NCBI GenBank assembly: GCA_964580365.1
Contig: CAZOLL010000002.1
Location: 1 to 44,006 of the forward strand
DNA: 44,006 bases
Direction of reading: 5' to 3'
Origin: an uncultured Phycisphaeraceae bacterium
Lineage (GTDB): Bacteria > Planctomycetota > B15-G4 > JADJEK01
Made by a program: the position numbers and the translations under genes
Shown: positions 7,104 through 35,400 of the stretch, piece after piece
Layout: every line of letters starts with the position of its first letter
Numbering within the stretch: position 1 is the stretch's first letter
Notes under the pieces: model-generated
Database searches by the model: none
What the model was told of the DNA's origin: nothing
Seen by the model: the letters and a program-made list of their open reading frames with translations, nothing else

Positions 7104-7133
7104 CGCCCGGCGGCGTGCTATTGCGCGGGCCTC

Positions 7134-7391: not shown

Positions 7392-7425
7392 GCTCTTCCG
7401 TCCCGGATCGTCCGGCGGAGGCCGC

Positions 7426-18222: not shown

Positions 18223-19535
18223 GCGCGATGGACGACGAGAACAATCCGAGCGGTCCGTTCTGCTCGATCGAAGAGGCCCTGGACGATCTGCGTCAGGGCA
18301 GGCTGATCGTTCTCGTCGACGACGAGGACCGCGAGAACGAAGGCGACCTCTGCTGCGCGGCCGAGTTCGTCACGCCCGAGACCATCAACTTCATGTCGCG
18401 CGAGGCGCGCGGCCTGATCTGCCTCGCGCTCGACGCGAAGATCGTCGACCAGCTCGAGCTGCCGATGCAGGTCGCCGACAACTCGTCGCGCTTCGGCACC
18501 GCGTTCACGGTGTCGATCGAGGCGAAGCACGGCGTCACGACCGGCATCTCCGCCGCCGACCGTGCGCGCACGATCCGCACGGCCGTCAACGCGAATGCGA
18601 AGGCGTCTGACCTCGTGCGTCCCGGCCACGTGTTCCCGCTGCGCGCGAAAGAAGGCGGCGTCCTGGTGCGCGCCGGCCAGACCGAAGGCATCGTCGACCT
18701 CGCCCGTCTCGCGGGGCTGCGTCCCGCCGGCGTGATCTGCGAGATCATGAACGACGACGGCACGATGGCGCGCGTCGGCGACCTCGAGAAGTTCTGTGCC
18801 AAGCACTCGATCCGCATGTGCTCGGTCGCCGACCTCATCGCGTGGCGCCGCCGCAACGAGAAGCTCGTCGAGCGCACCGTGACCGTCGACCTGCCGACGC
18901 GCTTCGGCCCGAAGTTCGACCTCCACGTCTACCGCTCGAAGGTCGACGGCATGGCGCACCTCGCGCTGTGCCTCGGTATTCCGCGCCCGGTCGACGACTC
19001 CGGCGCTCCGCCGTTGAAGGACCCCGTCCTCGTCCGCGTCCACTCCGAGTGCTTGACGGGCGACCTGCTCGGCTCACTCCTCTGCGACTGCGGCGCGCAG
19101 CTCCACATGGCGCTCGATGCCATCGCGAACGCCGGGCAGGGCATCCTGCTGTACATGCGGCAGGAAGGGCGCGGCATCGGCCTCGAGAACAAGCTGAAGG
19201 CCTACCACCTGCAGCAGACGAAGGGGCTCGACACCGTCGAAGCGAACCAGGCGCTCGGCTTCCCCGCCGATATCCGCGACTACGGCCACGGCGCGCAGAT
19301 CCTCCGCGACCTCGGCGTGCGGCGGATCCACCTGCTGACGAACAACCCCCGCAAGTACCACGCGCTCAAGGGTTACGGCCTCACGATCGACGGCCGCGTC
19401 CCGATCCAGGCCTCTCCGAACCCAAGCAACGCGAAGTACTTGTGGACGAAGGCCGCGAAGCTCGGGCACCTGCTCGACCCGCAGCCGGCACCGACGGATC
19501 GTCCTGCGGCGCCTCCTGCGTCCGACCCGGGGTGA
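18219..19535 (+). CDS. ribBA: bifunctional 3,4-dihydroxy-2-butanone-4-phosphate synthase / GTP cyclohydrolase II
   Basis: DHBP synthase motifs [11 protein letters not shown] and [13 protein letters not shown] motifs [19 protein letters not shown] and [16 protein letters not shown] at 18219 overlaps the gyrA stop; ATG at 18228 is an alternative start. Confidence 0.95.
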
Positions 19536-19603
19536 CCCCAATTCTTCGGAGGGCCGGGAAGAAAGGCGGGGCCGCGGCCGTTCACGTGCCCCGCTCGACG
19601 CAT

Positions 19604-19629
19604 GGAAACGGCCGGCCCGGCCGCGCGTC
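19604..19629 (+). promoter_or_regulatory. candidate ECF-type promoter (GGAAAC-N16-CGTC) upstream of the second ECF sigma gene
   Basis: ggaaac at 19604-19609, a 16-nt spacer, then cgtc at 19626-19629, about 85 nt upstream of ATG 19714. It matches the generic GGAAC-N16/17-CGT architecture of autoregulated ECF promoters. This is a motif match only. Confidence 0.25.
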
Positions 19630-19713
19630 GCGCGAGGTCCTCCAATGCACGGCTCGCATGCGATCGACGTCGCCGTCTCCGCCGGCCCCGCGCCGGCGTG
19701 GTCCTGCGGCGTG

Positions 19714-20271
19714 ATGGACGAGCTCGACGATCGCGCCCTCGTCGATCGGGCGAAGGCCGGCTCGGAGGACGCGTACACCGCTCTCGTGCGCCGCTACCAC
19801 GAGCGCGTCTTCAAGGTCGCCGCACGCATCGTGCGCACCGCGGAGGACGCCGAGGACGTGACGCAGGAAGTCTTCGCGCGCGCGCTGTCTGCGCTCGATC
19901 GCTTCGACTTCCGCGCGACGTTCTACACGTGGCTCGTGTCGATCGCGCGCAACGCCGCGTTCGACGCCTACCGCAGCGGTCGCCGCACGCGGACGACCTA
20001 CAACCTCGAGGGCGGGTTCGAATCGTTCCCGCACGACGGCTCGGCCGACCCGGTCCGCACCAACGCGGAGAAGGAACGCGCCGAGCGGGTTCAACGCGCG
20101 TTGTCGCGGCTGTCGCCGCGCGACCGCACGCTCCTCGTGCTGCGCGAGTACGAGGACATGCAGTACGAAGAGATCGCAGTGGTCCTGGGCTGTCCGGTCG
20201 GCACCGTCGAGTCCGGCATCCATCGCGCGCGCAAGAAGCTGAAAGTCCTGCTCGGAGACGTCGAACCATGA
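19714..20271 (+). CDS. ECF (group 4) RNA polymerase sigma factor
   Basis: Region 2 is DVTQEVFARALSALDRFDFRATFYTWLVSIARNAAFD. Region 4 is LSPRDRTLLVLREYEDMQYEEIAVVLGCPVGTVESGIHRARKKL. I prefer the ATG at 19714 (MDELDD) over the upstream 19645. Confidence 0.88.
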   Translation: MDELDDRALVDRAKAGSEDAYTALVRRYHERVFKVAARIVRTAEDAEDVTQEVFARALSALDRFDFRATFYTWLVSIARNAAFDAYRSGRRTRTTYNLEGGFESFPHDGSADPVRTNAEKERAERVQRALSRLSPRDRTLLVLREYEDMQYEEIAVVLGCPVGTVESGIHRARKKLKVLLGDVEP

Positions 20272-20744
20272 ACCGCGACAACATCGAACGCATGATCGAC
20301 CTGCACCTCGACCGACGTCTCGGCATGGACGACGAACGCCGACTCGCCGAGACCCTTGCGCGTGACGCGGGCGCGCGTGCGATCCTCGCCGAGCGCGAGA
20401 ACCTGCGCGCGATGCTCCGCTCGGTGCCGGAGCCGCGCGTCCCCGCGAAGCTGCTCGACGGCGTGCTCGCGCGCGTCGCGCAGGAACGCGCGGGAGCGGG
20501 ACGGTCGGCGCGCATCCTCCCTTTCGCGCGCCGCGTGCTGCTCGCGGCCACGATCCTCTTCGCCGCGGCCTTCTTCGCCCTGGTGGCGGACTTCACCCTG
20601 AACCGCCCGGCGAAGGTGAACGCGGGCGATCCGATTGGCCAGCCGACGATCGGCGACCGTCTGCCGGGTGACGCCGCCGGCGAGCACTTCGGCGACGCCG
20701 TGAAGGACTACCTCGAGTGGCGCTTCCTGGGTCGCAACCGGTGA
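20268..20744 (+). CDS. putative anti-sigma factor (single-pass membrane protein)
   Basis: ATGA overlap with the sigma gene. An N-terminal helical domain is followed by one TM segment (VLLAATILFAAAFFALVADF). Assignment is by position. Confidence 0.5.
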   Translation: MNRDNIERMIDLHLDRRLGMDDERRLAETLARDAGARAILAERENLRAMLRSVPEPRVPAKLLDGVLARVAQERAGAGRSARILPFARRVLLAATILFAAAFFALVADFTLNRPAKVNAGDPIGQPTIGDRLPGDAAGEHFGDAVKDYLEWRFLGRNR

Positions 20745-21097
20745 CGAGCGTCCGGACGCTCCTCGCGATCGGAGCGGTCTTCCTGTTCGGCGCGGGCGTG
20801 CTCGCGGGGTTCGTCTTCTCGCGGCACGGCGAAGGGACCGCGAACGCCGAGACGAGCGGGAACACCTATCTCCAGCGCCTCGTGAACGACTACCATCTGC
20901 GCCCCGATCAGGTCGAGCGCATCAAGGGTCACCTCGGTCAGGAGCAGGGCAAGGTCGACGCGATCGTCGAAGGCGTCGCGGAGCAGGTGAAGCAGGCGAT
21001 CCGCGCCGCGCGCGCGGAGACGGTGGATTCGATTCGCGGCGAGCTCGACCCCGAGCAGCGCGAGCGCTTCGACCAGGACCGCAAGAGAGGCAGTTAG
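20741..21097 (+). CDS. membrane-anchored periplasmic helical protein, Spy/CpxP/heavy-metal-sensor-like
   Basis: GTGA overlap with the upstream gene. An N-terminal TM segment (LLAIGAVFLFGAGVLAGFVF) is followed by helical repeats with L.PDQ / L.PEQ motifs (YHLRPDQVERIK, ELDPEQRERF). Confidence 0.45.
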   Translation: MTSVRTLLAIGAVFLFGAGVLAGFVFSRHGEGTANAETSGNTYLQRLVNDYHLRPDQVERIKGHLGQEQGKVDAIVEGVAEQVKQAIRAARAETVDSIRGELDPEQRERFDQDRKRGS

Positions 21098-21103
21098 AAC
21101 CGC

Positions 21104-22906
21104 ATGGCCACGTACGTCGGTCTCGAGCTCGGCAGCGCCGAAGCGCGCATCCTGGAAGCCGAAGGCTCCGCCAAGAAACTCAAGGTCACCAACTTCGCTC
21201 GCGTCGAGCTCGAGCCGCCGAAGGAAGGCCCCGTCGCCGCGGTGCTCGACAAGGACGCGGGCGACCGCATCGACAAGGCGATCTCCGCCGCGAAGTTCTC
21301 GCGCGAGCCGGTCGCGATGTCGTGGGACTCGGGGCTGACGATCTTCCGCGAGATGGAGCTGCCGTTCACGGGCGACGAGCAGATCCGCAAGGTCATCAAG
21401 TACGAGGCCGAGTCGCACCTCCTCAACTGCGACATCAACGACGTCGTCGTCTGCCACTACAAGCTCGCCGAAGGCAAGGAGAAGAGCCGCCTGATGGTGA
21501 TGGCGGCGAACAAGGAGCAGCTCCTGAACCGCATCGAGGTCGTGGGGCGCGCGGGCGTCGACCCGCAGCTCGTCGACCTCGACGTCATGGCGGCGTTCAA
21601 CGCGTTGAACGCGCTCGGCTACGTCAACGAGCACAAGACCTTGATGGTGCTCGACTGCGGCCGCCGCCTCACGACGGTGCTCCTCATCGCCGACGGCCGC
21701 CTCGTGTCCGGCCGCGCGATCCGCATCGGCAGCGACCAGATCACCACGCGGCTCGCGCACGACCTCGAGACCGATCCGAAGGTCATCGCCGACCAGGCGA
21801 AGAAGCTGCTCGGCAACCCGGACGCTCAGGACGACCTCATGGTGCCGGCCGCGTCGGTCGCGCCCGTCGCACACGGCGACGCCGAGAAGTCGGAGACCGC
21901 GAAGGCGCCGGTCGAACTCGCGCGCGACCTCGCACTGCAGCGCGTGGGCGACTTCTATGGGAAGCTCACGCGCGAGATCAAGCGCACGCTCGTCTCGCAG
22001 AAGCTCGCCGCGCCGATCGAAGTCATCTACGCCACCGGCCCCGGCAGCCTCCTGCCCGGTTTCGCGGAGCACGTCGCGCAGAAGCTCGGCATCAACGCGC
22101 CGATGAAGCCGCTCGATCTGTTCGCGCGCGTCGAGCACTCGCTGACGCCGGACCAGGCGAAGGCCGTCGAAGTCGAGGCGCTCACCGCGCTCGGCCTCGC
22201 GTTCAAGATGGCCGGGTTCGACTCGACCAGCGTCGACTTCCGCCAGGAAGAGGTGCGCTACACCAAGAAGTTCGACCAGGTGAAGGAGCCGCTCATCTAC
22301 TTCTGCGCGGTCATCCTCATGTTCGTGCTGCTGTGGGACATGATCGAGGTGAAGAAGCTCTCGACCAAGCAGCCGTTCATGATCCGCGCCGACAAGTCGG
22401 ATGTCTGGCGCATCTGGGACACCGCGATGCGGACCTACACGCAGACGCTTGGCGCCGACGCGCCCGTGACTGCGCAGATGAAGGAGCCGAGCGTCACCGG
22501 GATTCGCGCCATCAACTTCCAGATGGAGAAGAAGAAGGACGAGCTAATGGGCGAGCTCGGCCGCGGCGGCCTCATCCCGGAGCTGCCGTCGGCGTTCGTC
22601 ATGTGGCAGCACGTGTTCGAAGCGGTCTCACCGAGCATGGACAAGATCGGCAAGCTCGTCCTCGAGGACATTCGCGTCGTCGTGCGAAAACAGAAGTCGC
22701 CGTACTGCGAGCTGAAGGGGTACACGAGTTCGGCGTCGGCCTACAACGACCTCATCACTGCGCTCGGCACGATCACCGCCCTCGACCAGAACAAGCAGAC
22801 CGTGAAGGTGACGGTGAAGGAAGGCAACACCAAGAACCCAGGCGATCGCTACGAGTTCTCCGGATTGCGCATCGAGTGGCCAGAGCGGAAGAACGGAGAA
22901 TACTGA
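21104..22906 (+). CDS. PilM-like actin-fold domain fused to a TM segment and a PilN-like periplasmic domain (GspL-like architecture)
   Basis: The N-terminus YVGLELGSAEARILE, DLDVMAAFNAL and MVLDCGRRLTTVLLIADGRLVSGRAIRIGSDQIT match the PilM/ASKHA phosphate and adenosine motifs. One TM segment (LIYFCAVILMFVLLW) sits near residue 395, followed by a Lys-rich domain of about 190 aa. Confidence 0.7.
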   Translation: MATYVGLELGSAEARILEAEGSAKKLKVTNFARVELEPPKEGPVAAVLDKDAGDRIDKAISAAKFSREPVAMSWDSGLTIFREMELPFTGDEQIRKVIKYEAESHLLNCDINDVVVCHYKLAEGKEKSRLMVMAANKEQLLNRIEVVGRAGVDPQLVDLDVMAAFNALNALGYVNEHKTLMVLDCGRRLTTVLLIADGRLVSGRAIRIGSDQITTRLAHDLETDPKVIADQAKKLLGNPDAQDDLMVPAASVAPVAHGDAEKSETAKAPVELARDLALQRVGDFYGKLTREIKRTLVSQKLAAPIEVIYATGPGSLLPGFAEHVAQKLGINAPMKPLDLFARVEHSLTPDQAKAVEVEALTALGLAFKMAGFDSTSVDFRQEEVRYTKKFDQVKEPLIYFCAVILMFVLLWDMIEVKKLSTKQPFMIRADKSDVWRIWDTAMRTYTQTLGADAPVTAQMKEPSVTGIRAINFQMEKKKDELMGELGRGGLIPELPSAFVMWQHVFEAVSPSMDKIGKLVLEDIRVVVRKQKSPYCELKGYTSSASAYNDLITALGTITALDQNKQTVKVTVKEGNTKNPGDRYEFSGLRIEWPERKNGEY

Positions 22907-23448
22907 TGGCCGACTTCGCGAAGGGCTTCATCTACACGAGCCTCGCGCTCGCGCTCGCGGGAGGCGGCTTCCACTTCTATCTCGCGAACCGCCTGAAGTC
23001 GGCCGATCCGGACGTCGAACAGGCGCTCAAGTTCTTGAAGGAAGTCAGTGTGAAGAAGGAGGACATCAACGCCCTCCTGCGCGAGAAGGAGAACGACGAC
23101 TACCTGAAGCGCGACAAGTCCGCGCGCCTCGACGAATTCCTCGCCGAACTCTCGAAGAACGCCGGCATGGAGCGCGGTCCGAGCAAAGAGAAGCCGCAGG
23201 ACGACATCGCGAACAGCAGCGCGGGCTGGAAGGACACCTCGAACGAGATCAGCTGGCTCGGCGACCGATCGCGCAAGCTCAAGTTCACCCGCGAGCAGAT
23301 CGCGCACTTCTGCTACTCGCTCGAGAACAAGACCAAGCTGCTCAAGGTGACGTCGATCCAGCTCACGACCGATCGCGACGCGCTCGACGACAGGTGGGAC
23401 GCGCGCTTCACGATCACCGAGCGCGCGCCGAAGACCCTCGGGCAATGA
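22906..23448 (+). CDS. bitopic membrane protein, PilO/GspM-like (architecture only)
   Basis: The ATG at 22906 shares one base with the upstream TGA (TGATG). It has an N-terminal TM segment (FIYTSLALALAGGGFHFYL), a coiled-coil-like Lys/Glu-rich stretch, and a C-terminal alpha/beta-looking domain. There is no sequence motif proof. Confidence 0.4.
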   Translation: MADFAKGFIYTSLALALAGGGFHFYLANRLKSADPDVEQALKFLKEVSVKKEDINALLREKENDDYLKRDKSARLDEFLAELSKNAGMERGPSKEKPQDDIANSSAGWKDTSNEISWLGDRSRKLKFTREQIAHFCYSLENKTKLLKVTSIQLTTDRDALDDRWDARFTITERAPKTLGQ

Positions 23449-23491
23449 TCGCGCGGCACGCCGCCGCGACCTCGCACTCCGTTCCGACCCG

Positions 23492-23935
23492 ATGAGCCGC
23501 GCGTTCGTCAAGGAGACCGACGACCGCGAGCCGCGCTGCCCGGTTTGTACCGGGCGCGGTGTGCCGGTCACGCGCGTGACGATCGCAGCGCTCGCCGGCG
23601 AACCCGCGGCCGCGCGGCTTGGCGCCGAGACGTTCTGCTGCGACGTCCCGTCGTGCGAAATCGCGTGGTTCGACGGCGTCGGCGCACGCGTCCGCGTCGA
23701 CGAACTGCGCGCGCCGCCCTGGCCGAAGGATCCGTCCGCGCCGGTCTGCGCGTGCTTCGGCGTCGGCGCCGATCAGATCGAGGCGTGGGGCGCGCGCGCC
23801 GACACCGCCGCGGTGAAGGCGCTGCTCGAGCGCGTGAAGGGGACGTCCGCGCGCTGCGCGACGAAGGCGTTCGACGGCAGCTCGTGCGAGCCGCACGTGC
23901 GGAAGATCTTCCTTCGAGCGCGCGGACTCGGCTGA
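23492..23935 (+). CDS. cysteine-rich putative metal-binding protein (N-terminal CxxC zinc-ribbon-like plus BFD/CopZ-like CxC module)
   Basis: CPVCTGRG, FCCDVPSCEIAWF, VCACFGVGADQIEAW, and ARCATKAFDGSSCEPHV. It resembles the putative Fe-S/metal chaperone family with a C.CF..t...I motif. Assignment is from memory. Confidence 0.4.
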   Translation: MSRAFVKETDDREPRCPVCTGRGVPVTRVTIAALAGEPAAARLGAETFCCDVPSCEIAWFDGVGARVRVDELRAPPWPKDPSAPVCACFGVGADQIEAWGARADTAAVKALLERVKGTSARCATKAFDGSSCEPHVRKIFLRARGLG

Positions 23936-23958
23936 GTCCGCGCTCGGTCACGCCGCGA

Positions 23959-25143
23959 TCAACCGCGGAAGGCGTCGAGCCCCGTGACCCACTTGCCGAG
24001 GATCAGCGTGTGGACCTCGTAGGTGCCTTCGTAGGTGTGCACCGACTCGAGGTTCGCCGCGTGGCGCAGCGCCTGGTACTCGTCGAGGATTCCGTTCGCG
24101 CCGAGGATCTCGCGGCAGGTGCGCGCGGTGTCGAGCGCCATCTTCACGTTGTTGCGCTTCGCCATCGAGATCTGCTCGGGCGTCACCGCGCCCGCGTCCT
24201 TCAGTTTGCCAAGGCGCCAGCACAACAGCTGCGCCATCGTGATCTCGGTGAGGATGTCCGCGAACTTGCGCTGCGTGAGCTGGAAGCCCGCGATCGGGCG
24301 GCCGAACTGCGTGCGCGACTTCGAATAGCGCACCGCCTCTTCGAGGCAGCCCTGCGCGGCGCCGATGCCGCCCCACGCGATGCCGTAGCGCGCCTGGTTC
24401 AGGCACGAGAGCGGACCGCCGAGGCCCTTCGCGTCCGGCAAGCGGTTCGACTCCGGCACTTCGACGTGATCGAGCACGAGCTCGGAGGTGACCGACGCGC
24501 GCAGCGAGAGCTTGCCCTTCATCTCCGGCGCCGAGAAACCCTTCATGCCCTTCTCGACCAGGAAGCCGCGCACGCCGTCGTCGGTCATCGCCCACACGAC
24601 CGCGACGTCGGCGAGCGTCCCGTTGGTGATCCACATCTTGTTGCCGTGGACGACCCAGGTGTCCTTGTTCTTCTTGGTCGCCTTCGTCGACATCCCGCCC
24701 GGATCGGAGCCGTGGTCCGGTTCGGTGAGGCCGAAACAACCGATCTTCTTGCCCGACGCGAGCTGGGGCAGCCACTTCTTCTTCTGCTCTTCCGAGCCGT
24801 AGCGGAAGATCGGGAACATCACGAGCGCGCCCTGCACCGACGCGAACGAGCGCACGCCCGAGTCGCCGCGCTCGAGCTCCTGCATGATCAACCCGTAGGC
24901 GACGTTGTTGAGGCCCGCGCAGCCGTACTCCTCCGGCAGGTTCGCCCCGAAGACGTTCAGCTCCGCGAGCTGCGGGATCAGGTCGTTGGGGAACGTGCCG
25001 TTCCGCGCGTGCTCCGCGATGATCGGGACGACCTTCTCGGAGGTGAAGTCGCGCACGGTGTCGCGCACCATGCGCTCCTCCTCGGAGAGGAGCTCATCGA
25101 GCTTGTAGAAGTCCACGCCGCGGTAGTCGGGGTTCGTGACCAT
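23959..25143 (-). CDS. gcdH: glutaryl-CoA dehydrogenase (acyl-CoA dehydrogenase family)
   Basis: CFGLTEPDHGSDPGGM, WITNG, and the C-terminal ILGANGILDEYQALRHAANLESVHTYEGTYEVHTLILG are typical of GCDH. Confidence 0.88.
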   Translation of the reverse strand: MVTNPDYRGVDFYKLDELLSEEERMVRDTVRDFTSEKVVPIIAEHARNGTFPNDLIPQLAELNVFGANLPEEYGCAGLNNVAYGLIMQELERGDSGVRSFASVQGALVMFPIFRYGSEEQKKKWLPQLASGKKIGCFGLTEPDHGSDPGGMSTKATKKNKDTWVVHGNKMWITNGTLADVAVVWAMTDDGVRGFLVEKGMKGFSAPEMKGKLSLRASVTSELVLDHVEVPESNRLPDAKGLGGPLSCLNQARYGIAWGGIGAAQGCLEEAVRYSKSRTQFGRPIAGFQLTQRKFADILTEITMAQLLCWRLGKLKDAGAVTPEQISMAKRNNVKMALDTARTCREILGANGILDEYQALRHAANLESVHTYEGTYEVHTLILGKWVTGLDAFRG

Positions 25144-25243
25144 TCGGGTCTCCGGGGAAGCGCGGCAGTTTAGCAGGCGGAATTCCCGTCACGCGCGAGC
25201 GCCTGGGCAACCCGATCGGAAGCCCCACGATCGGAGGATTCCC

Positions 25244-25492
25244 ATGTCGTCCCGAACCGCGCTCGTCGCGTTCCCGATCCTCGCTGCGCTCGCGGCTTCG
25301 TCTTCACGCGCCGCCACCATCACCGTTTCGAAGACCGGCGCGATCCAGACCATCCAGGCCGGCGTCGACGCCGCGGGCCCGGGCGACACCGTCGTCGTCC
25401 TCGACGCATTGCCCGCCGGTGGCGCGACCTACACTGGCAACGTCAGCAGCGACGGCACCGACACGGCGCCCGCGACGCCCGAGATCGACTGA
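25244..25492 (+). CDS. 82-aa secreted mini-paralogue of the adjacent beta-helix protein (signal peptide, N-cap and C-terminal tail only)
   Basis: GGAGGA lies 5 nt upstream of the ATG. MSSRTALVAFPILAALAASSSRA, then ATITVSKTGAIQTIQAGVDAAGPGDTVVVLD...YTGNVSSDGTDTAPATPEID. Both ends are homologous to those of the 25533..27131 product. Confidence 0.6.
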   Translation: MSSRTALVAFPILAALAASSSRAATITVSKTGAIQTIQAGVDAAGPGDTVVVLDALPAGGATYTGNVSSDGTDTAPATPEID

Positions 25493-25532
25493 ATCGAGAG
25501 TCCTTCCCACCCCGAAACGGAGCGAGTACCCA

Positions 25533-27131
25533 ATGTCCCTTCGACCGATGTTCATCAGCCTCGCTGCGCTCGCGCTCGCGACCGCAGTGGCAAACGCCGC
25601 CACGATCACCGTCTCGAAAGGCGGCGCGATCTCGACGATCCAGGCGGGCGTCACCGCCGCGGGCGCCGGCGACACCGTGCTCGTGAAGGCGGGCACCTAC
25701 GAGGAGGCGGTCGACGTTCCGGCCGGCAAGGACGGCCTCACGATCAAGGGCAAGGGCAAGGTCGTGCTCGAGGCGCGCGCGCCGAACGGCGACGGTCTCG
25801 GTCCGGCGCTCGACATCCAGTCGGCGAACGTCACCGTTCAGAGCATCGAGATCAGAAACGCCGACGACGACATGGTGGTGATCGGCGACGCGATCAACTT
25901 CAACGCCGCGAACCTCACGGTGTCGAAGTGCCGCATCGTGAACTGCGCGGGCTTCGCGATGCGCAGCCTGAACGGTCCCGGCGCGCGCATGATCGACTGC
26001 GACGTGCTCGGCTGCGCGACCGGGCTGTTCATCCAGGGCGCCGGAGTGCAGGTCACGAACTCGACGTTCCGAATGACCGACGTGGCGATCAAGATCTTCG
26101 GCGCGAACGCCGTGATCCGCGATTGCGACGTCCGCGCCGTGGGCGACCAGTTCGTGATCCTCGAGGGCGACGATGCCGTGATCGAGCGCAACACGTTTGT
26201 TCGCGCGGGCGGCATCGGCCTCTCGATCGACGGCGCCGGCGCGACCTTGAACAAGAACGTGATCCAGCAAGTCGGCGGCAACGCGCTGGTGCTCGAAGGC
26301 GCGAACGCGGTGCTGAGCAAGAACCGCTTCGAGAACTGCGGCAACACTGCGATCACGTTGATCAACGCCGGCGGCGCGCAGCTGAAGAAGAACACGGTTT
26401 CGACCTGCGCGCAGTTCGGCATCGTGATCGCCGGCGACGGCTGCGAGCTGAGCAAGAACGCGATCACCGACGCGCTCGGCGGCGGCATTGGGCTCACCGG
26501 CCTGAACTCGACCATCGAGAAGAACGAAGTCCGCCGCGGCGGCGGCGTCGGGATCGGCGTCGAGGGCACCGGCCTGGCGATCCGCTCCAACACGATCTCG
26601 GAGCTCACCGGCGCGGCGAACGGCATCCTGGTGCAGAACGCGGGCTCCGGCTCGATCGAGGACAACGAGATCTCGGACGTCGGCGGCGACGGCGTGCGCA
26701 CCGAGGCGACGACTGCCGGCCTGCAGATCCTCGGGAATCGCGTGCGCTCGGTCGGCGACTTCTTCTCGGACGACGGCTTCGACATTTCCGGCGCGGTGCA
26801 CACGGTCTCGCAGAACGTGGCCGAAAACGGCGCGGGCGACGGCTTCCACATGCAGGGCGATTCGATGACCGTGAGCGGAAACCGTGCTTCGGGCCACTTC
26901 CGCGACGGCATTCAGATCGTGAACGGGATGAACGTCACCGTCGACGAGAACACGGTGAAGGACAACAACGGCGAAGGCATCGAGGTGAACGCGAACGGCA
27001 CGAGCGTCACGAACAACAAGGCGAGCGGCAACCGCATCGACTACGCCGACAGCTCGACCGGCTCGACGTTCACGGGCAACTCGAGCAGCGACGGCACGCA
27101 CACCGCGCCGCCGCCGCCCGAGGTCGACTGA
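25533..27131 (+). CDS. secreted right-handed parallel beta-helix repeat protein (PbH1/NosD-like)
   Basis: Signal peptide MSLRPMFISLAALALATAVANA. N-cap ATITVSKGGAISTIQAGVTAAGAGDTVLVKAGTYEE. Many units of about 22 aa of the type N.I...G..GI.L.G.... Tail TGNSSSDGTHTAPPPPEVD. Confidence 0.85.
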   Translation: MSLRPMFISLAALALATAVANAATITVSKGGAISTIQAGVTAAGAGDTVLVKAGTYEEAVDVPAGKDGLTIKGKGKVVLEARAPNGDGLGPALDIQSANVTVQSIEIRNADDDMVVIGDAINFNAANLTVSKCRIVNCAGFAMRSLNGPGARMIDCDVLGCATGLFIQGAGVQVTNSTFRMTDVAIKIFGANAVIRDCDVRAVGDQFVILEGDDAVIERNTFVRAGGIGLSIDGAGATLNKNVIQQVGGNALVLEGANAVLSKNRFENCGNTAITLINAGGAQLKKNTVSTCAQFGIVIAGDGCELSKNAITDALGGGIGLTGLNSTIEKNEVRRGGGVGIGVEGTGLAIRSNTISELTGAANGILVQNAGSGSIEDNEISDVGGDGVRTEATTAGLQILGNRVRSVGDFFSDDGFDISGAVHTVSQNVAENGAGDGFHMQGDSMTVSGNRASGHFRDGIQIVNGMNVTVDENTVKDNNGEGIEVNANGTSVTNNKASGNRIDYADSSTGSTFTGNSSSDGTHTAPPPPEVD

Positions 27132-27168
27132 CGCGGCGCGTTGACGGATCGACCCGGGTCACGAAGAT

Positions 27169-27201
27169 GCGCGCTCCGGTTCCTCGAACCTCGGAGCGCG
27201 C
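27169..27201 (+). promoter_or_regulatory. GC-rich hairpin (perfect 10-bp stem) between the beta-helix gene and the second mini-ORF; its 3' arm contains the GGAG of that ORF
   Basis: gcgcgctccg (27169-27178) pairs with cggagcgcgc (27192-27201). The 13-nt loop gttcctcgaacct can itself pair (gttc/gaac). The ATG at 27206 lies 4 nt after the stem. Confidence 0.5.
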
Positions 27202-27205
27202 ATCG

Positions 27206-27373
27206 ATGTCCTTCCGAGCGCTGTCGGTTTCCGCCGCCATCCTCCTGTTCGTGAGCGGCGCGTCTTCCGCCGCGACGACTACCGTCTCGAAGGGCCGCGC
27301 GATCCCGACGGTCCAGAGCAACACGAGCAGCGACGGCACGGGCAACGCTCCGGTGACGCCCGAGGTCGACTGA
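27206..27373 (+). CDS. 55-aa secreted mini-paralogue of the beta-helix protein (signal peptide, 16-aa N-cap fragment and C-terminal tail)
   Basis: MSFRALSVSAAILLFVSGASSA, then ATTTVSKGRAIPTVQ, then SNTSSDGTGNAPVTPEVD. GGAG lies 9 nt upstream. An alternative ATG exists at 27167. Confidence 0.5.
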   Translation: MSFRALSVSAAILLFVSGASSAATTTVSKGRAIPTVQSNTSSDGTGNAPVTPEVD

Positions 27374-27398
27374 CGACTCGATCACGGCGCACGTCGCG

Positions 27399-28232
27399 AT
27401 GGAGCTCGACCGCTGCCCGATCTGTGCGAACCTGCTGCGCGCGGGCGCCTGCAGCCGCTGCGCAGGGACGATCGCGCGGCCGCAGCTGCTCGCGCCCAAG
27501 AGAGGCGGCGCGGCCAGCGAGCTCTTCGCGGGCACGCGCATCGCGTTTCGCTCGATCTATCTCACGCTGACGCGACCGAGTCTTTTCGCGCTCGCCGCGC
27601 TGCCGCTCGCCCTGAGCGCGATCGCGTTCGTCGTGATGGTGTGGCTCGTGTGGACGCATCGCGAGTCGTTCCGCCCCGACTTCGCGAGCGAGTGGCACTG
27701 GAGCGTCGACTGGCTGCGCGCGACGATCGGATTCGTCGCCGAGTTCGCGTTCGTCCTGGTCGCGATCGGCGTCTCGCTGCTTGCCACGCTCGTGATCCAG
27801 ACCGTCCTGAACGCGCCCTTCAACGAGTGGATCTCGGAAGCCGCGGAGTCGCTCGTGCTCGGCGAGAAGGACAAGACGCCTCTCTCGTTCCACAAGGTCT
27901 GGCACACGTGGATCGTCCCGCTCGCGCAGGCGGCGGTGCTTGCGGTGATCCAGGCCCTACTCTCGATCGCGCTGCTCGTCGCGTCGTTCACCGGCGTGCT
28001 CGCGCCGCTCGTGTTCGTCGCGAGTGTCTGGCTGACGGCGATCACGCTGGTCGACGTCGCGATCGCGCGTAAGCGGCTCCCCGTCGCGGAGCGCTTCGCG
28101 ATCGTGAGGCGTGATTTCGCGCTGTGGTTCGGCGTCGCGTGGCCGTTCGCGTTCGTTCCGTTCCTCCTGCCGCTCGGCGTCGCGGGCGCGACGTTCGCCG
28201 AGATGCGTGGACGCGTCGCCCCGGCGCGTTAG
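27399..28232 (+). CDS. EI24/CysZ-like (DUF540) polytopic membrane protein with an N-terminal CxxC...CxxC zinc ribbon
   Basis: CPICANLLRAGACSRCAG is followed by 4-5 long TM segments with spacing like CysZ/EI24 proteins. It starts 25 nt after the mini-ORF stop. The family call comes from overall pattern only. Confidence 0.5.
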   Translation: MELDRCPICANLLRAGACSRCAGTIARPQLLAPKRGGAASELFAGTRIAFRSIYLTLTRPSLFALAALPLALSAIAFVVMVWLVWTHRESFRPDFASEWHWSVDWLRATIGFVAEFAFVLVAIGVSLLATLVIQTVLNAPFNEWISEAAESLVLGEKDKTPLSFHKVWHTWIVPLAQAAVLAVIQALLSIALLVASFTGVLAPLVFVASVWLTAITLVDVAIARKRLPVAERFAIVRRDFALWFGVAWPFAFVPFLLPLGVAGATFAEMRGRVAPAR

Positions 28233-28858
28233 CCGTTGTGCAGAACCACGTCGGCCGCCTCGCGCGGTCGATCACGCGCGATGTGCAGTTCCTGCGCGGG
28301 GTAGTAGAGCGAGCGGTACGCCGCGCGGGTCGCTTCCGGAGGCAGCCCTTCTTGTGCACGCGTGACGGCGCGCGCGAGCCCGACGTCGAACGGGCACTCG
28401 ATCCAGATCGAGAGGTCGAACCGCGCGCGCAGCTCGCGCTTCAAGAGGAAGATCCCCTCGATCAAGACGACGTCACGGTTGCCGTGCGTCGCGACCTGAC
28501 GGAACAGTCCGTCGAAGTCGAACGCTTCCGCGACGAAGCGCTCCGGCGTCACCGGCGGGTCGAGCGCGTTCGACGGGAATCGCTGCCAATCGTCGACATG
28601 GAGCAGAGCGACTCGGAGGCTCCGCGCCTCGAGCTCGCGGCGGAGCTGCTCCGAGACGAACCCCTTGCCGGAGGCGTCGATACCCGAAACGGCGCACTCG
28701 ATCGCACGCGAAGGCGGCACGCGGCGGCGCACCGCGACGATCGCGTCGACGACGGAGCAGAAGGCGGCGGAGTCCACGACGGGATTTCGATGCGCCGGAA
28801 CCTCGAAGCGTTTCGCATCGAGACCGCGCGCCTGGACGATCCCAGGCCGATGGGGCAT
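28229..28858 (-). CDS. uridine kinase / phosphoribulokinase-family P-loop kinase
   Basis: I prefer the ATG at 28858 (MPHRPGIV). P-loop-like VSGIDASGKGF. VVLIEGIFLLKRELRARFDLSIWIECPFDVGLARAVTR matches the PRK/Udk core. The Walker A motif ends GKG rather than GKS/T. Confidence 0.6.
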   Translation of the reverse strand: MPHRPGIVQARGLDAKRFEVPAHRNPVVDSAAFCSVVDAIVAVRRRVPPSRAIECAVSGIDASGKGFVSEQLRRELEARSLRVALLHVDDWQRFPSNALDPPVTPERFVAEAFDFDGLFRQVATHGNRDVVLIEGIFLLKRELRARFDLSIWIECPFDVGLARAVTRAQEGLPPEATRAAYRSLYYPAQELHIARDRPREAADVVLHNG

Positions 28859-28901
28859 GGTTGCACCCCTCGCGATCCGCCCCACGCTTTCGGAGGTCCG
28901 C

Positions 28902-29336
28902 ATGACCGTTTCCAGCGTCCGCTCCGTGCTCGTCGCCGTGTCCGTCGCGCTCGCACTCGCCCTTGGGCACGATCTGTTCGCGTCACTTCCGACCGTGAAG
29001 GGAAAGGGTCGGCTCGCGTCCACCTTCGAGAAGGCCGTCGCGCTCGGCTCTCCGGCATTCGAGACGCTCTACACCGTGCCGGCAAACCGCACGCTCGTCC
29101 TCACCGACGTCGTCGTCGGTAACACCGCCGCGTCGACGTTCTGCCAGTTCGGCCTCGTGCGGGTCGGGCCCCCGGACGATGCGGAGGTGCTCGCGACGAT
29201 CCGCGTGCCGGTGAACGAGACGTTCGACCACCTCTTCGGTAGCGGCATCGAATTCGGGGCGGGCGCGCAAGTCATCGCGGTCGTCACGAGCGGGAGCGCG
29301 GGCCTGACGCTGCGCGGCTACCTGCGGAAGAACTGA
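28902..29336 (+). CDS. small secreted hypothetical protein (144 aa)
   Basis: GGAGG lies 6-10 nt upstream of the ATG at 28902. Signal-peptide-like MTVSSVRSVLVAVSVALALALG. The remainder is beta-rich. No family recognised. Confidence 0.5.
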   Translation: MTVSSVRSVLVAVSVALALALGHDLFASLPTVKGKGRLASTFEKAVALGSPAFETLYTVPANRTLVLTDVVVGNTAASTFCQFGLVRVGPPDDAEVLATIRVPVNETFDHLFGSGIEFGAGAQVIAVVTSGSAGLTLRGYLRKN

Positions 29337-29378
29337 CCGGCGGAGCGGCGGCGCCCGCGTCGCTACGATCCGGCCCCG

Positions 29379-31212
<1,834 letters not shown>

Positions 31213-31232
<20 letters not shown>

Positions 31233-32154
31233 GAAGGCGGAAGCGAAGAGCCGCGGCCTCGAGCCGAAGGACCTCGCCGACGGCGCGGTCCCGGCGCGCA
31301 TCGACGAGCTGTCGCGCCACGTGGAGGACGACGGCGGCGTCGTGCTTTCGCGGTTCAAGGACCCGCTCGGTGGCAACTGGCAACTGCTCGTCGCGCTTCC
31401 GATCGACGCCGTGCAGCCGACGCCCTATCAGCGCGACCTCTCCGAAGCGCACGTGAAGAACCTCACGAACCGCATCGACCAGCTCGGCCGCTTCCTCGAC
31501 CCGGTGATCTGCTACCGCAAGGGCAATGGCGAGTACTGGACGCCGAACGGCAACCATCGCCGCGCGTCGCTGCTCGCGCTCGGCGCGAAGACGATCACGG
31601 CACTGCTCCTCCCCGACGAGGAGATCGCGTTCAAGATCCTCGCGCTCAACACGGAGAAGGCGCACAACCTCCGCGAGAAGGCGCTCGAGGTGATCCGCAT
31701 GGCGGAGTCGCTCGCCGCGATCGGCGGGCGCGCGGAGGACGAGTTCGCCATGGAGTTCGAGGAGCCGCAATTCCTCACGCTCGGTCTCTGCTACCAGCAG
31801 AACGGTCGCTTCGCGGGGAGCACGTACCAGCCGGTGCTGAAGCGTCTCGAGAAGTTCCACTCCGAGAAGCTGACCAAGACGATCGAGATGCGGAAGAAGC
31901 GCGCCGCGAAGTTGATCGAGCTCGATGAAGCCGTCTCCGCCGCCGTCGCGCAGCTGAAGGAGCGCGGGTTCCAGAGCCCGTACCTGAAGACCTTCGTCGT
32001 CGCGCGCGTGAATCCGATCCGCTTCTCGAAGGGCACGGACCACGACTTCGACGAGGTGATCGACAAGATGATCGCGGGCGCGAAGAAGTTCGACGCCTCG
32101 AAGGTGAAAAGCGATCAGCTCGCGTCGGCGTCCGGTCCGCCGGACGAAGGATGA
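31213..32154 (+). CDS. ParB/Sulfiredoxin (ParB N-terminal domain)-like protein
   Basis: The ATG at 31213 overlaps the metG 3' end by 20 nt. IDAVQPTPYQRDLSEAHVKNLTNRI...YWTPNGNHRRASLLALGAKTITALLLPD follows the ParB-N pattern (...G.HR..A....G). The C-terminal half is helical and Lys-rich. Confidence 0.6.
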
Positions 32155-32489
32155 CCGCGGCGCGCACCTACGACTGCTGCTCGTGCGGCGCGTGTTGCGT
32201 GAACCCGGATCGCAACCGCGCCGAGAACAGCGTCGACTACGTGATGATCGACGATGAAGAGAGCCGGCTGCTCTCGAAGCCGGCCCTCTCCAAGCGGCAC
32301 GTCCGCTTCGACGCGCGCGGCACGGCGTGGCTGCGGCTCGACCCGAGCGGGCGATGCACCGCGTTGGAAGGGAAGCTCGGCAAGCGCGTGAAGTGCGTCG
32401 TGTACGAGAACCGCCCGCGCGGCTGCCGCATCGTCGAGCCGGGCACACCCGAGTGCCTCGCGGCGCGCAAGGAACGCGGGATCGACTAA
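32151..32489 (+). CDS. YkgJ-family cysteine-cluster protein (CxxCxxCC, UPF0153)
   Basis: ATGA overlap with the upstream gene. CCSCGACC lies near the N-terminus, followed by C.AL, RPRGC and PEC cysteines. Confidence 0.7.
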   Translation: MTAARTYDCCSCGACCVNPDRNRAENSVDYVMIDDEESRLLSKPALSKRHVRFDARGTAWLRLDPSGRCTALEGKLGKRVKCVVYENRPRGCRIVEPGTPECLAARKERGID

Positions 32490-32492
32490 CGG

Positions 32493-35400
32493 TCAGCGCG
32501 GCACGCCGCGCGCCAGGTAGTGCGTCGCGGCGCCGACCGGATCGACCGGCCACATGCGGACCGCGCCGTCGAGCGCGCCGCTCAGCACGAACGCGCCGTC
32601 GGGGCTGAACACGGCGTCGAGGATCGCGCCGCCCGCGTGGCGGATGACAAGGTGCTGCTCGCGCCGATTCGCGTCCCAGAGACGGATCGAGCCGTCCTTC
32701 GACGCGATCAGCGCGAATCGTCCGTCGGCACGGAAGCGGACCGTCGTCGTCGAGGTCGCCGGCATCTCGGCCTGCGGCAGCGGCAGCTCGACGAGCGTGT
32801 CGACGTCGAGCAGCCACACGTAGTCGAGCGACCCGTGCGCCGCGATCACGAATCGCCCGAGCGGGTCGATGCCGATCATGCCGCGCGAGTGGGCCGCGAA
32901 CTTCTCGTCGATCACGCGCCGCCACGTTCCGTCGAGCATCCAGTACCCGAACGGGCGGTCCTCGTGCGACGAGTACAGGCGGTTCGTGAGCGGATCGAGT
33001 GCGATGTCGGACACGCCGTGGAAGGTGTTCACGCCGCCGCCACGGTCGCCGGGTGTCGGCTCGAGCAGCCGGATCAGCGCGCCTTCGTGGGTGGGCGAAA
33101 GATCGTGGATCTCCAGAGTCCGATCGCGGCCCCCGACCACGAGCCAACCGCGCGTGTCGTCGACGAGCACGACATCGGCCGCGGCGGCCTGCGCGCGGAA
33201 CGTGGTGCGAAGGGCGCCGGACTCGGCGTCGAACGTGCGCGCGACGCCGGTCTCGTCGACGCTCACGACGGAGCGGCCGTGGTCGAAGTACGCCGCGTCG
33301 ACGAGCGGCGAATCGCCGCCGCGCATCTCGACCTCGGGCCGTTCGGCGGACACGCGCCAAGTGCGGACGGTGGAGTCGTCCGCGACGGTCAGCACGCGCT
33401 CGCCAGCGGGCGCGACGCGCACTTTCCGAACCGGCATCTCGTGCCGAAACACGGCGAGTTCCGCGCCCGTTGCGCGGTCGAACACGCGCGCGGTGTGGTC
33501 GCGCGACGCAGTGAACACGCGGCCGCCATCAGCGGAGAACGCGACTTGTTCGACCGCCTCGCGGTGACCGAAGAACTCCGGCAGGTAGTCGCGGAACCCC
33601 GGCTTCCACGAGCGGAGCGAGTCCGCGTCCTCGGTCACGAGGCGGCTGCCGTCCTTGGACCAGGCGACGTGCGTGACGTTCGTCTCGGTGCGCACTCCGA
33701 CCGCGACTTCGTCCCACGTGTCGGTGGAGTAGAACCGCACGCTCTTGTCGCGGACGAACACGCCGAGTCGCGTGCCGTCCGGGCTGAACGCTCCGAAGTG
33801 CGGCGAGCGATCGTTCAGTGGATGCGTGCGGATGCGCCGGCCGGTCGCCGCATCCGAGACGATCAACCCCTCGCGACTGCCGGTGACGATCGCGTCGCCG
33901 CGCGGCGAGACCGCGATCCACCTCCCGATCTGGCCGAGCGCGATCTTCGTCCACTGCCGGCCGGGCGCCGTGTCGAAGGCCCAAGCCCAGTCGTCGAAGG
34001 CGATCACCGCGAGTCGCGCGCCGGTCTTGTCGAAGTCGAACGCCATGGCCTGATTGCCTTCGAGGTCGAGCCGGAGCGCAACGGTCGCGCGCGCGACGTC
34101 CCAGAGCCAAACCTCGAGCGAGCCTTGGACGTCTTCCCTGCCCTTCGCGCGGACCGCGAGTCGTTTCCCGTCCGGCGAAAACGCGATCTGATCGATGCGG
34201 CCCGTGTGCCGCTCCTTCGGCAGGAGCTCGACGCCGTTCTCCAGGTCGAAAAGGCGCAACAGCGCATCCGTCCCGCACACCGCGCCGAAGCGGCCGTCGT
34301 CGCTGATCTCAGCGTCGAGAACGATCGACGTCTCCGCCTCGCGTGGCGGTTCGGTCGAGGCGATCGTGCGCACGAGGTTCCAACTGGAAGTCTCGCGGAC
34401 CTCGACGTCTCCGCCGCGCCCGAACACGGCGGTCCGATCCGCGTGCTGCGCGACGGCGACGAACGGGTCGTCCATGAGCGTCGCCAGCTCGCGGCGCGTG
34501 CGGCCGGTTGCCGGATCGAGATCGACGACGCGCTTGGCGCCGACGCCGATCAAGAAGCCTCCACCGATCGGATCCGCTCGGATCGCGCCGCGAGGGTAAA
34601 AGCTCTTCTCCTCGAACGGTCGCCACCACTCTTCGCGGCACGAGTTCAGGATTTGAAGGAGGATCGTGTTCGTTTCGGCCTGCGGCTCGCGCCGCGCGGC
34701 GGCGAGCGCGCGCTCGAGCGCGACGCGCGGCGTGGCGTCGCGCGACTCGAGCGCCAGCATCGCGTCCTTCCATGCGCCGAGACGCTCGGCCTGGCTCGAC
34801 ATCCGCCCCAGCAGGATGACGAGGACGACGAGCGCCGCGCACGTCACGCCGGTGGCGATCGACCAGACCGGATGGCGCTGTCCGAAGCGAAAGGCACGCA
34901 ACATCAGCCCCGCGCGGCGCGCCTTCACCGGCTCGAATCTCTGCAGGCGCGCGAGATCGTCCGCGAAGTCGGACATCGTGCGGTAGCGCCGCTCGACGGA
35001 CTTCTCGAGCGCGGTCTCGAGGACGGCGGCGAGCTCGCGCGAGACCCACGACCGTCCGCGGCGTGGGTCTCGCACCTCGCTGTTCAGGATCGCGGCGGAC
35101 AGCTCGTGCTGCGTGGCGCCGGTGAACGGCCGTTCGAGCGTGATCGCCTCGTAGAGCGTGGCACCGAGCGACCAGACGTCGGCGCGGCGGTCGCAGCGCT
35201 GTCCGCGATGCTGCTCGGGCGCCATGTAGGCCGGCGTGCCGAGGACGTCGCCGGTCAGAGTGAGGTCGGAGTTCGCGGACTCGTCGCGCGCGAGGCCGAA
35301 GTCGAGGATCACCGGATCTCCGTCCGGCGTGATCATCAGGTTGCCGGGCTTGATGTCGCGATGGATGATCCCGGCCTCGTGCGCGGCGTGCAGGCTGCGC

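Follow-up and report, generated by a model that had tools for sequence, protein, structure and literature searches.

The DNA analysed here is a window of 44,006 nt from an uncultured Phycisphaeraceae bacterium, in which three co-directional ORFs lie between a dehydrogenase gene and a gene for a membrane protein (Table 1). The original prediction had described ORFs of 82, 532 and 55 aa that have a signal peptide, an N-cap and an 18-aa tail in common, and all three are indeed found at their predicted positions. ORF1 retains the signal peptide, the N-cap as far as GDTVVV, the short island LDALPAGGA (9 aa), and the last rung with the tail. In ORF3, the signal peptide is followed by 15 mature residues (ATTTVSKGRAIPTVQ) and then by the 18-aa tail; the retained mature N-cap comprises 30 residues in ORF1 versus 15 in ORF3. 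As predicted, the translations of ORF1 and ORF2 agree at 25 of 30 residues counted from AATITV, the same tail (GNVSSDGTDTAPATPEID in ORF1, GNSSSDGTHTAPPPPEVD in ORF2, and SNTSSDGTGNAPVTPEVD in ORF3) is followed by the same GAC TGA end, and each ORF has a GGAG(G) Shine-Dalgarno sequence of its own. The two short ORFs, referred to below as stubs, are both annotated as genes in the public record.

Table 1. Features of the beta-helix locus and its boundaries (window coordinates)
Feature	Position	Strand	Basis or remark
Glutaryl/acyl-CoA dehydrogenase gene, left array boundary	23959..25143	-	394-aa ORF; Pfam Acyl-CoA_dh on syntenic gene
GGAGG Shine-Dalgarno sequence of ORF1	25233..25237	+	Sequence; upstream region aligns upstream of the L001 539-aa gene
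ORF1, probable 82-aa stub of the position-1 beta-helix paralogue	25244..25492	+	Closest to the full-length genes at position 1 in L001 (539 aa) and L006 (533 aa)
ORF1 junction A (GTCGTCGTC)	25391..25399	+	...GDTVVV joined to LDALPAGGA; probably ~27 codons lost
ORF1 junction B (GGT GGC GCG)	25415..25423	+	PAGGA joined to TYTGNVSS; probably ~430 codons lost
GGAG Shine-Dalgarno sequence of ORF2	25519..25522	+	Sequence
ORF2, intact secreted right-handed beta-helix protein, 532 aa	25533..27131	+	Pfam, AlphaFold2 model
GGAG Shine-Dalgarno sequence of ORF3	27193..27196	+	Sequence; aligns upstream of L001 position 3
ORF3, probable 55-aa stub of the position-3 paralogue	27206..27373	+	Best match is the L001 position-3 gene (530 aa)
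ORF3 junction (CAG|AGC)	27314..27319	+	Probably ~475 codons lost
EI24/CysZ-like membrane protein gene, right array boundary	27399..28232	+	277-aa ORF; PF07264 recorded

A repeat search resolved the shared ends into an N-cap family (75 nt, three copies, 72 to 75% identity) and a tail family (70 nt, three copies, 79 to 83% identity), and the shared motif occurs nowhere else in the window outside the array. In BLASTP, ORF1 aligns with ORF2 in two collinear segments at the extreme ends only (E = 1e-8 and 2e-8), as does ORF3 with lower significance (E = 2e-4 and 7e-5), in agreement with the predicted absence of the body from both flanking copies. The similarity of the ends is thus well beyond chance. 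No beta-helix repeats were detected in ORF1 or ORF3 and no Pfam domain passes the threshold in either; sub-threshold Pfam/NCBIfam hits of the stubs (RXLR, E = 0.11; OmpX, E = 0.011; PsbY, E = 0.13) were dismissed as noise.

ORF2 is the sole complete paralogue remaining in the window genome. It matches the Pfam models Beta_helix (E = 2e-46, 157.9 bits, cut-off 25.9) and NosD (E = 1e-22, 80.9 bits, cut-off 23.6), but with 55.4 bits it stays far under the 300-bit cut-off of the NosD equivalog TIGR04247 (NCBIfam). The AlphaFold2 model (pLDDT 91) predicts continuous three-strand beta-helix rungs from residue 24 to 519, with residues 512 to 519 as the last helix strands and residues 521 to 532 disordered. 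Right-handed parallel beta-helix proteins (Pfam PF13229, PF05048) include PL6 alginate lyases, AlgE epimerases, and tailspikes. Indeed, the closest PDB folds in Foldseek are polysaccharide lyases, epimerases, tailspikes, and adhesins, all of them generic matches with TM-scores of 0.2 to 0.4, and a sequence search of the PDB found no relative of ORF2. Exact-protein look-ups with ORF1 and ORF2 returned no further contig, and a genome scan with a four-sequence alignment recovered L001 (see below) and distant single-copy homologues only.

To place the array, the window lineage was compared with two other lineages of its clade, L001 (Phycisphaeraceae MAG GCA_964493525.1) and L006 (Logan assembly SRR23073234), and with outgroups such as L015; a further Logan assembly, of run SRR22720030 (L007), is taken up below. 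Collinearity between L001 and the window extends over more than 16 kb, with 83 to 90% nucleotide identity, and the flanking proteins are 98% (dehydrogenase) and 83% (EI24) identical to their L001 orthologues. Between these same two genes, L001 carries full-length paralogues of 539, 531, and 530 aa and an older fourth stub. L006 has part of the dehydrogenase gene as well as a full-length gene at position 1 (533 aa) and a gene at position 2. ORF2 is 66% identical to protein P0001 of L001, and the three L001 genes are 37 to 42% identical to ORF2 over their full length. Outgroups whose dehydrogenase is 81 to 82% identical at the amino acid level have no array, and in L015 the dehydrogenase gene directly adjoins EI24; the beta-helix array is specific to one small Phycisphaeraceae clade. 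L001-type contigs from five assemblies are 99.7 to 99.9% identical over the region of position 3 and the fourth stub and are thus too alike to speak for long-term conservation of that stub.

By alignment score, the best match of ORF1 is with the position-1 genes and that of ORF3 with position 3. The markers TVSKTGA, GPGDTV, IDALPTGGA, and GNVSSDGTD are common to ORF1 and its position-1 orthologues, and MSFR.LS and NTSSDGTGNAP to ORF3 and its position-3 orthologue. The Shine-Dalgarno sequences of both stubs are, from the alignment of their upstream regions, inherited as well, that of ORF1 from a full-length position-1 gene. Conservation of the mini-ORFs among relatives, a check proposed with the original prediction, was not observed: as mini-ORFs they are absent, and the positions hold intact genes of 530 to 539 aa.

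Comparison with L001 also located the breakpoints. At the sites of junction A, position 1 of L001 reads GAC ACC GTG ATC GTG ... GAC GGC GTC GTC ATC GAT GCG CTG. At junction B it has GGC GGT GCG (TGGA|PAGPG) and GGC GGC GCG (DSGGA|SYSGN), a 9-nt in-phase direct repeat. Position 3 of L001 has CAG GGC GGC after TIQ and ACG GGC AAC at TFT|GN, that is, an in-phase GGGC microhomology at the site of the ORF3 junction. All three breakpoints therefore coincide with direct repeats, namely, GGC GGY GCG (9 nt), GTCGTC (~6 nt), and GGGC (4 nt), and about 450 to 475 of ~530 codons are missing from the stubs. In the four full-length genes, whose GC3 is 0.93 to 0.95, repeats separated by 60 nt or more are in phase in 61 to 71% of cases for 4-mers and in 89 to 94% for 9-mers. 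Since short repeats mostly share the codon phase at a GC3 of ~0.94, repeat-mediated deletions are usually in-frame, and the in-frame outcome is the default for such deletions.

The N-cap and the C-terminal tail are conserved throughout the full-length family, and the last four residues are PE[ILV]D in 16 of the 19 full-length proteins. Because this C-terminus is native to the full-length proteins, the conservation of the tail in the stubs was inherited from them. The original prediction had taken synonymous differences between the ends as a sign of constraint on the mini-ORFs themselves. However, the paralogues are old (37 to 42% identity) and their ends are conserved family-wide; the differences therefore record constraint on the full-length proteins before the deletions. 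A dN/dS analysis, also proposed at the time, was in line with decay in one stub and showed no relaxation in the other. ORF3 has a whole-ORF dN/dS of 0.76 and carries G->R and I->V substitutions at positions invariant in 15 of 15 full-length members, as well as an I->T substitution. ORF1 retains all family-invariant N-cap residues, and over 58 shared codons its window-specific branch has 12 synonymous to 4 non-synonymous changes, compared to 9:9 and 6:8 in the intact orthologues (binomial test against neutrality, P = 7e-5; Fisher test against the orthologues, p = 0.075). At the sequence level, the absence of relaxation in ORF1 would be explained equally well by very recent deletions or by continuing constraint.

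Our data point toward ordinary gene decay (probability about 0.78), in which two full-length genes for secreted beta-helix proteins were reduced to the mini-ORFs by in-frame internal deletions, and not toward a novel type of mini-protein, because close relatives hold intact genes at the same positions. Synteny, orthology, and breakpoints support in-frame deletion relics, one of the readings considered in the original prediction, and leave its suggestion that the termini are autonomous functional modules unsupported. In our model, a tandem array of paralogues for Sec-exported right-handed beta-helix proteins, descended from at least three full-length copies of about 530 to 540 aa, is in decay at this locus. 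In the window lineage, nearly the whole beta-helix body would have been lost, by two deletions at position 1 and by one at position 3, through replication slippage or microhomology-mediated recombination between short direct repeats. Thereby, the ancestral ribosome-binding site, start, signal peptide, N-cap, last rung, tail, and stop would have been fused into one small ORF. The ends are alike despite their synonymous differences because the paralogues are old and the full-length family is most conserved at its ends, and we infer that neither stub has a function of its own. Two further explanations were rejected: a role of the stubs as silent donor cassettes for ORF2 variation, as they hold the conserved ends and not the variable body, and a recent gene conversion that homogenised the ends, as either stub resembles the orthologue at its own position more closely than it resembles ORF2.

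It is also conceivable that the stubs are maintained as translated ORFs, either as exported mini-proteins with a PE[ILV]D-COOH end or as spacers whose translation sustains the expression of ORF2 and EI24. We consider this unlikely, and give it some weight because the ratio on the ORF1 branch is low and the frame is kept in three stubs of two genomes. In the spacer version, which we likewise regard as improbable, the peptides are functionless and the open frames are selected, in that translation to the native stop guards the downstream gene against polarity or permits translational coupling, and deletions survive only if they are cleanly in frame. The genes of the array are read in one direction across short gaps, with ORF2 starting 40 nt downstream of the ORF1 stop, EI24 25 nt downstream of the ORF3 stop, and a gap of 13 nt between the fourth stub of L001 and EI24, and there is no terminator-like site between the genes. 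Furthermore, EI24 in L015 has its own 276-nt upstream region, which the insertion of the array displaced, and every stub, including the older fourth one of L001, stays open in one frame between the ancestral start and the native stop (three of three stubs in two genomes). However, the in-phase bias of microhomologies (61 to 94%) alone already accounts for in-frame deletions, open frames of 55 to 82 codons persist by chance at 69% G+C, and the fourth stub of L001 has lost its own ribosome-binding site and ATG. A little less probable still are functional small secreted proteins that are exported, display the N-cap and PE[IV]D, and act as decoys or competitors for a partner recognising these ends or have acquired a new role. 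Intact start codons, Shine-Dalgarno sequences, signal-peptide-like N-termini, and frames would fit such proteins, as would the low non-synonymous:synonymous ratio of the ORF1 lineage (4:12) and an extreme C-terminus that is strongly conserved, predicted to be disordered, and in this respect similar to a short linear motif. Contrary to this idea, relatives have full-length genes and no mini-ORF at these positions, and a phmmer search with ORF1 against 1.84 billion representatives found no similar mini-protein: of its 43 hits, the sole one of 82 aa was the window's own protein. ORF1 and ORF3 form singleton clusters. Scans of JGI metagenome contigs with N-cap peptide patterns and with the degenerate tail pattern SSDGT..AP..PE[IV]D* were both empty. 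ORF3 is altered at family-invariant residues, the unequal N-caps argue against a common module, and the structure prediction suggested for the mini-proteins gave no predicted fold for ORF1 alone (AlphaFold2, single sequence, pLDDT 42).

An assembly artefact, in which the metagenome assembler collapsed repeats of the tandem paralogues, is very improbable. The window does come from a metagenome-type assembly, as one contig of 44 kb, and the paralogues have segments of 70 to 113 nt in common at 72 to 85% identity. However, the independent Logan assembly of SRR22720030 matches positions 25999 to 27399, including the ORF3 junction, with one mismatch in 1401 nt (99.93%). Moreover, the junction repeats of 4 to 9 nt are far below assembler k-mers and join non-homologous positions within one gene, and the stub sequences are diverged orthologues and not chimeras of ORF2.

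Under the preferred reading of deletion remnants, the locus is a caution that seemingly designed mini-ORFs with a ribosome-binding site, a signal peptide, and a conserved tail arise by default when genes in high-GC3 genomes undergo deletions between short repeats, a point that matters for the annotation of small proteins in GC-rich genomes. As a by-product, the analysis brought up PE[ILV]D-COOH, strongly conserved in a planctomycete family of secreted beta-helix proteins, as a candidate for a processing or recognition function. Should the stubs be exported mini-proteins after all, P-E-[ILV]-D-COOH would be an unrecognised C-terminal recognition motif of secreted beta-helix proteins in Phycisphaerae. 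The tail does occur outside the window, as the original prediction had thought possible for secreted proteins at large, but always as the native C-terminus of full-length homologues of the same family; it has thus been seen so far on the homologues of one beta-helix family and may be a family-specific C-terminus.

In being short, conserved, and placed at the extreme C-terminus of signal-peptide-bearing proteins, the tail resembles the PEP-CTERM, LPXTG, T9SS CTD, and GlyGly-CTERM tags, but it has no TM segment or basic cluster after the motif and is matched by none of the sorting-domain models of Pfam or NCBIfam. The PEP-CTERM/exosortase signal consists of a PEP motif, a hydrophobic transmembrane helix, and a basic C-terminal cluster; the window proteins stop at ...PE(V/I)D with nothing beyond and have no NCBIfam match. 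The LPXTG/sortase signal combines the LPXTG motif with a hydrophobic segment and a positively charged tail, all of which are missing from the sequences. The T9SS CTD is a C-terminal beta-sandwich domain of ~80 to 100 aa, for which no Pfam or NCBIfam match was obtained, and the ORF2 model shows disorder in the last 12 residues and places residues 512 to 519 within the helix. These results bear out the original exclusion of the three systems. A T1SS signal was rejected too, as N-terminal Sec-type signal peptides are present and RTX repeats are missing. Our literature search found nothing specific on C-terminal sorting signals of planctomycete beta-helix proteins. With regard to the beta-helix superfamily, the N-cap motif of the family (...TIQ.A(V/I).AA..GDT(V/I).V..G.Y) is the usual cap, whereas the ORF2 subfamily has a conserved C-terminus of its own, PE[ILV]D-COOH.

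The closest parallel to the stubs is provided by bacterial pseudogenes and gene remnants that arise from internal deletion between short direct repeats, through replication slippage or illegitimate recombination. In these, as here, most of the body is lost while relatives keep intact syntenic orthologues, the breakpoints lie at direct repeats of 4 to 9 nt, and the gene belongs to a redundant array of tandem paralogues. In contrast to such deletion pseudogenes, both stubs are still complete ORFs with a ribosome-binding site, a start, and the native stop, because of the codon-phase bias of repeats at a GC3 of ~0.94.

Taken together, our analysis favors, with a probability of about 78%, the view that ORF1 and ORF3 are two internally deleted remnants ("stubs") of tandem beta-helix paralogs. 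The three ORFs are co-directional, have GGAG(G) 8 to 12 nt upstream of each ATG, and share a signal-peptide-like N terminus (M-S-x-R, a hydrophobic stretch, and A-x-A), A-T-(I/T)-T-V-S-K directly after it, and a tail that ends in PE(V/I)D, encoded up to GAC TGA. A repeat search recovered a 75-nt family for the mature N-terminal segment (N-cap) and a 70-nt family for the tail, with three copies each at 72 to 83% identity and no further copy of either motif within the 44-kb window. BLASTP of each stub against ORF2 gave two collinear terminal matches (E values of 1e-8 to 2e-4). The original prediction thus described the three ORFs and their common ends correctly, as judged by coordinates, repeats, and BLASTP ends. 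Gene calls for both stubs are found in the public protein collection, from NCBI and, for ORF3, also from Logan.

Features of the beta-helix locus in the window and in L001, a Phycisphaeraceae MAG (GCA_964493525.1)
Feature	Location	Strand	Basis or remark
ORF1, 82 aa	25244-25492	+	sequence
ORF2, 532 aa	25533-27131	+	sequence
ORF3, 55 aa	27206-27373	+	sequence
Conserved C-terminus	window 27078-27131		also L001 positions 1-3, L003, L004, L006, P0002-P0044
Fourth stub, older	L001 13262-13483		same frame as preceding 530-aa gene; alignment to neighbor

The closest homolog of ORF2 (P0001, 66% identity) is encoded on a 31-kb contig of L001, and more than 16 kb of this contig are collinear with the window. 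An acyl-CoA dehydrogenase gene and an EI24 gene (98 and 83% protein identity) flank the array in both, and L001 has three full-length paralogs of 539, 531, and 530 aa between them. The markers of ORF1 (TVSKTGA, GPGDTV, IDALPTGGA, and GNVSSDGTD.AP) are found in the gene at position 1 and those of ORF3 (MSFR.LS and NTSSDGTGNAP) in that at position 3, and by summed BLASTP scores the top match of each stub is its positional ortholog. In a third lineage, L006 (Logan SRR23073234), we found a dehydrogenase fragment, a complete position-1 gene whose 533-aa product ends GGATYSGNTSSDGTGAAPATPEID, and a position-2 gene. The array is absent from outgroups with the dehydrogenase at 81 to 82% identity: in the nearest, L015 (GCA_964649825.1; 82% aa identity), EI24 and the dehydrogenase are encoded divergently side by side at 6961-9182, 276 nt apart and with no beta-helix gene between them, and the others (L016 to L019) have different neighbors and likewise no array. 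Because the outgroups lack it, the array is a lineage-specific expansion or insertion, confined to the clade of the window, L001, and L006, and two of its copies have since been lost in the window's lineage.

Compared with L001, the array (window 25200-27400) has 71 to 79% nucleotide identity and its flanks (17055-25176 and 29348-32492) have 83 to 90%, which suggests fast evolution or relaxed constraint of the whole array relative to the flanking housekeeping genes. About 600 nt of the window (28743-29347), overlapping a 223-aa ORF at 28665-29336, have no counterpart in L001, and 2.6 kb of L001 (18075-20708), including one gene for a TIG-domain protein and one for a protein with collagen repeats, are absent from the window (indel site 32492-32511).

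Breakpoints were placed by codon-level comparison with the L001 orthologs, and each lies at a short direct repeat. The single deletion in ORF3 runs from CAG GGC GGC (after TIQ) to ACG GGC AAC (TFT/GN), with the microhomology GGGC. Of the two in ORF1, one runs from GAC ACC GTx ATC GTG (DTVIV) to GAC GGC GTC GTC (DGVV/IDALPTGGA) and the other from GGC GGT GCG (TGGA/PAGPG) to GGC GGC GCG (DSGGA/SYSGN), at a 9-nt repeat. An independent Logan assembly of SRR22720030 matches window 25999-27399 with 1 mismatch in 1,401 nt, a confirmation that spans the ORF3 junction and not those of ORF1. An assembly artifact is very improbable, as the junction repeats are much shorter than assembler k-mers and the stub sequences are those of diverged orthologs, not ORF2 chimeras.

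L001 carries a further stub that aligns to residues 4 to 86 of the neighboring gene (E = 1e-5); 13 nt separate its ATGPEVD* end from the EI24 start. It reads GTG where the homologous start lies, lacks its own ribosome-binding site, keeps N-terminal remnants, and is found in five near-identical assemblies (L008 to L012). The window, with 25 nt from the ORF3 stop to EI24, has no counterpart. With this older stub, the decay of array copies is therefore recurrent.

All three deletions in the window are in frame. Since GC3 of these beta-helix genes is 0.93 to 0.95, a high share of repeats lies in the same codon phase (61 to 71% of repeated 4-mers and 89 to 94% of repeated 9-mers, with copies at least 60 nt apart), and deletion by slippage or microhomology is therefore in frame by default; the joint expectation for three such events is about one half. 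On these figures, the in-frame state is no evidence of selection, and an open frame of 55 to 82 codons is easily kept at 69% G+C. The same default weighs on a reading that needs no peptide, in which translation through the stubs shields ORF2 and EI24 from polarity: the 40-nt gap between ORF1 and ORF2, the gaps of 25 and 13 nt before EI24, and the lack of a terminator-like site between array genes speak for it, but in-frame deletions are already expected from codon-phase-biased repeats, and we consider it improbable. In the remnant model, ancestral array copies underwent internal deletion at short repeats, leaving ORF1 and ORF3 in frame with ends inherited from the full-length family. Among the readings first offered, deletion relics are the one supported by the intact syntenic genes of L001 and L006 and by the breakpoints at direct repeats.

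Several findings count against present constraint on, or function of, the stubs. Relatives have no mini-ORFs at these positions, and phmmer at full sensitivity, with ORF1 as query and 1.84 billion representatives as targets, gave 43 matches, with no short protein of N-cap plus tail except the window's own. Each stub is a singleton cluster, and the N-cap length retained differs between them. At sites that do not vary among 15/15 full-length members, ORF3 carries G->R and I->V, and its first strand carries I->T (whole-ORF dN/dS of 0.76 against L001 position 3); ORF1 alone gave no confident fold (pLDDT 42, weak evidence from a single-sequence prediction). The ORF1 branch has 12 synonymous and 4 nonsynonymous changes over 58 codons (P = 7e-5 against neutrality; p = 0.075 against its intact orthologs, at 9:9 and 6:8), and every invariant residue is retained. 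Simple decay does not account for this pattern. ORF1 looks unrelaxed, and therefore, from the three lineages compared, either its deletions are recent (roughly the last quarter of the branch at most) or the ORF is still under selection.

The tail does occur elsewhere, as the original prediction asked of constrained mini-ORFs, but on full-length proteins. An exact P-E-[ILV]-D C terminus is present in 16 of 19 full-length subfamily members (430 to 540 aa), including distant ones from other Planctomycetota (25 to 35% identity), and the N-cap T-I-T-V-S-K-G-G-.-I-.-T-I-Q is common to all 19. In this planctomycete secreted beta-helix subfamily, (S/T)F.GN....(D/G)G stands just before PE[ILV]D-COOH. 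TFTGNSSS forms the last helix strands in the ORF2 model, and the final 12 residues lie outside every Pfam and NCBIfam model and are predicted to be disordered. The tail lacks the hallmarks of PEP-CTERM, LPXTG, and T9SS CTD signals, as had been stated. The synonymous codon differences, taken earlier for constraint on the mini-ORF ends, are instead expected of old paralogs; they reflect purifying selection on the termini of full-length proteins and are uninformative on the mini-ORFs themselves.

ORF2 is of the Pfam Beta_helix/NosD type. AlphaFold2 predicts a single long right-handed beta-helix (pLDDT 91, residues 24 to 519), with low confidence at residues 1 to 19 (signal peptide) and 521 to 532. 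Pfam score and predicted fold place it in the right-handed parallel beta-helix superfamily; NosD proper was rejected (55 bits versus 300 required). No sequence relative was found in the PDB, and the nearest solved folds (PL6 alginate lyases, AlgE epimerases, tailspikes, and PfbA) are all generic likenesses with TM-scores of 0.2 to 0.4. By its superfamily alone, ORF2 is likely a secreted carbohydrate-active or carbohydrate-binding protein.

In sum, ORF1 and ORF3 are probably gene remnants that, in a GC-rich genome, came to be annotated as small proteins. In the loss of most of the domain and in having intact orthologs at the syntenic positions of relatives, they agree with gene remnants, and the locus is a new instance of an already known kind of gene decay.
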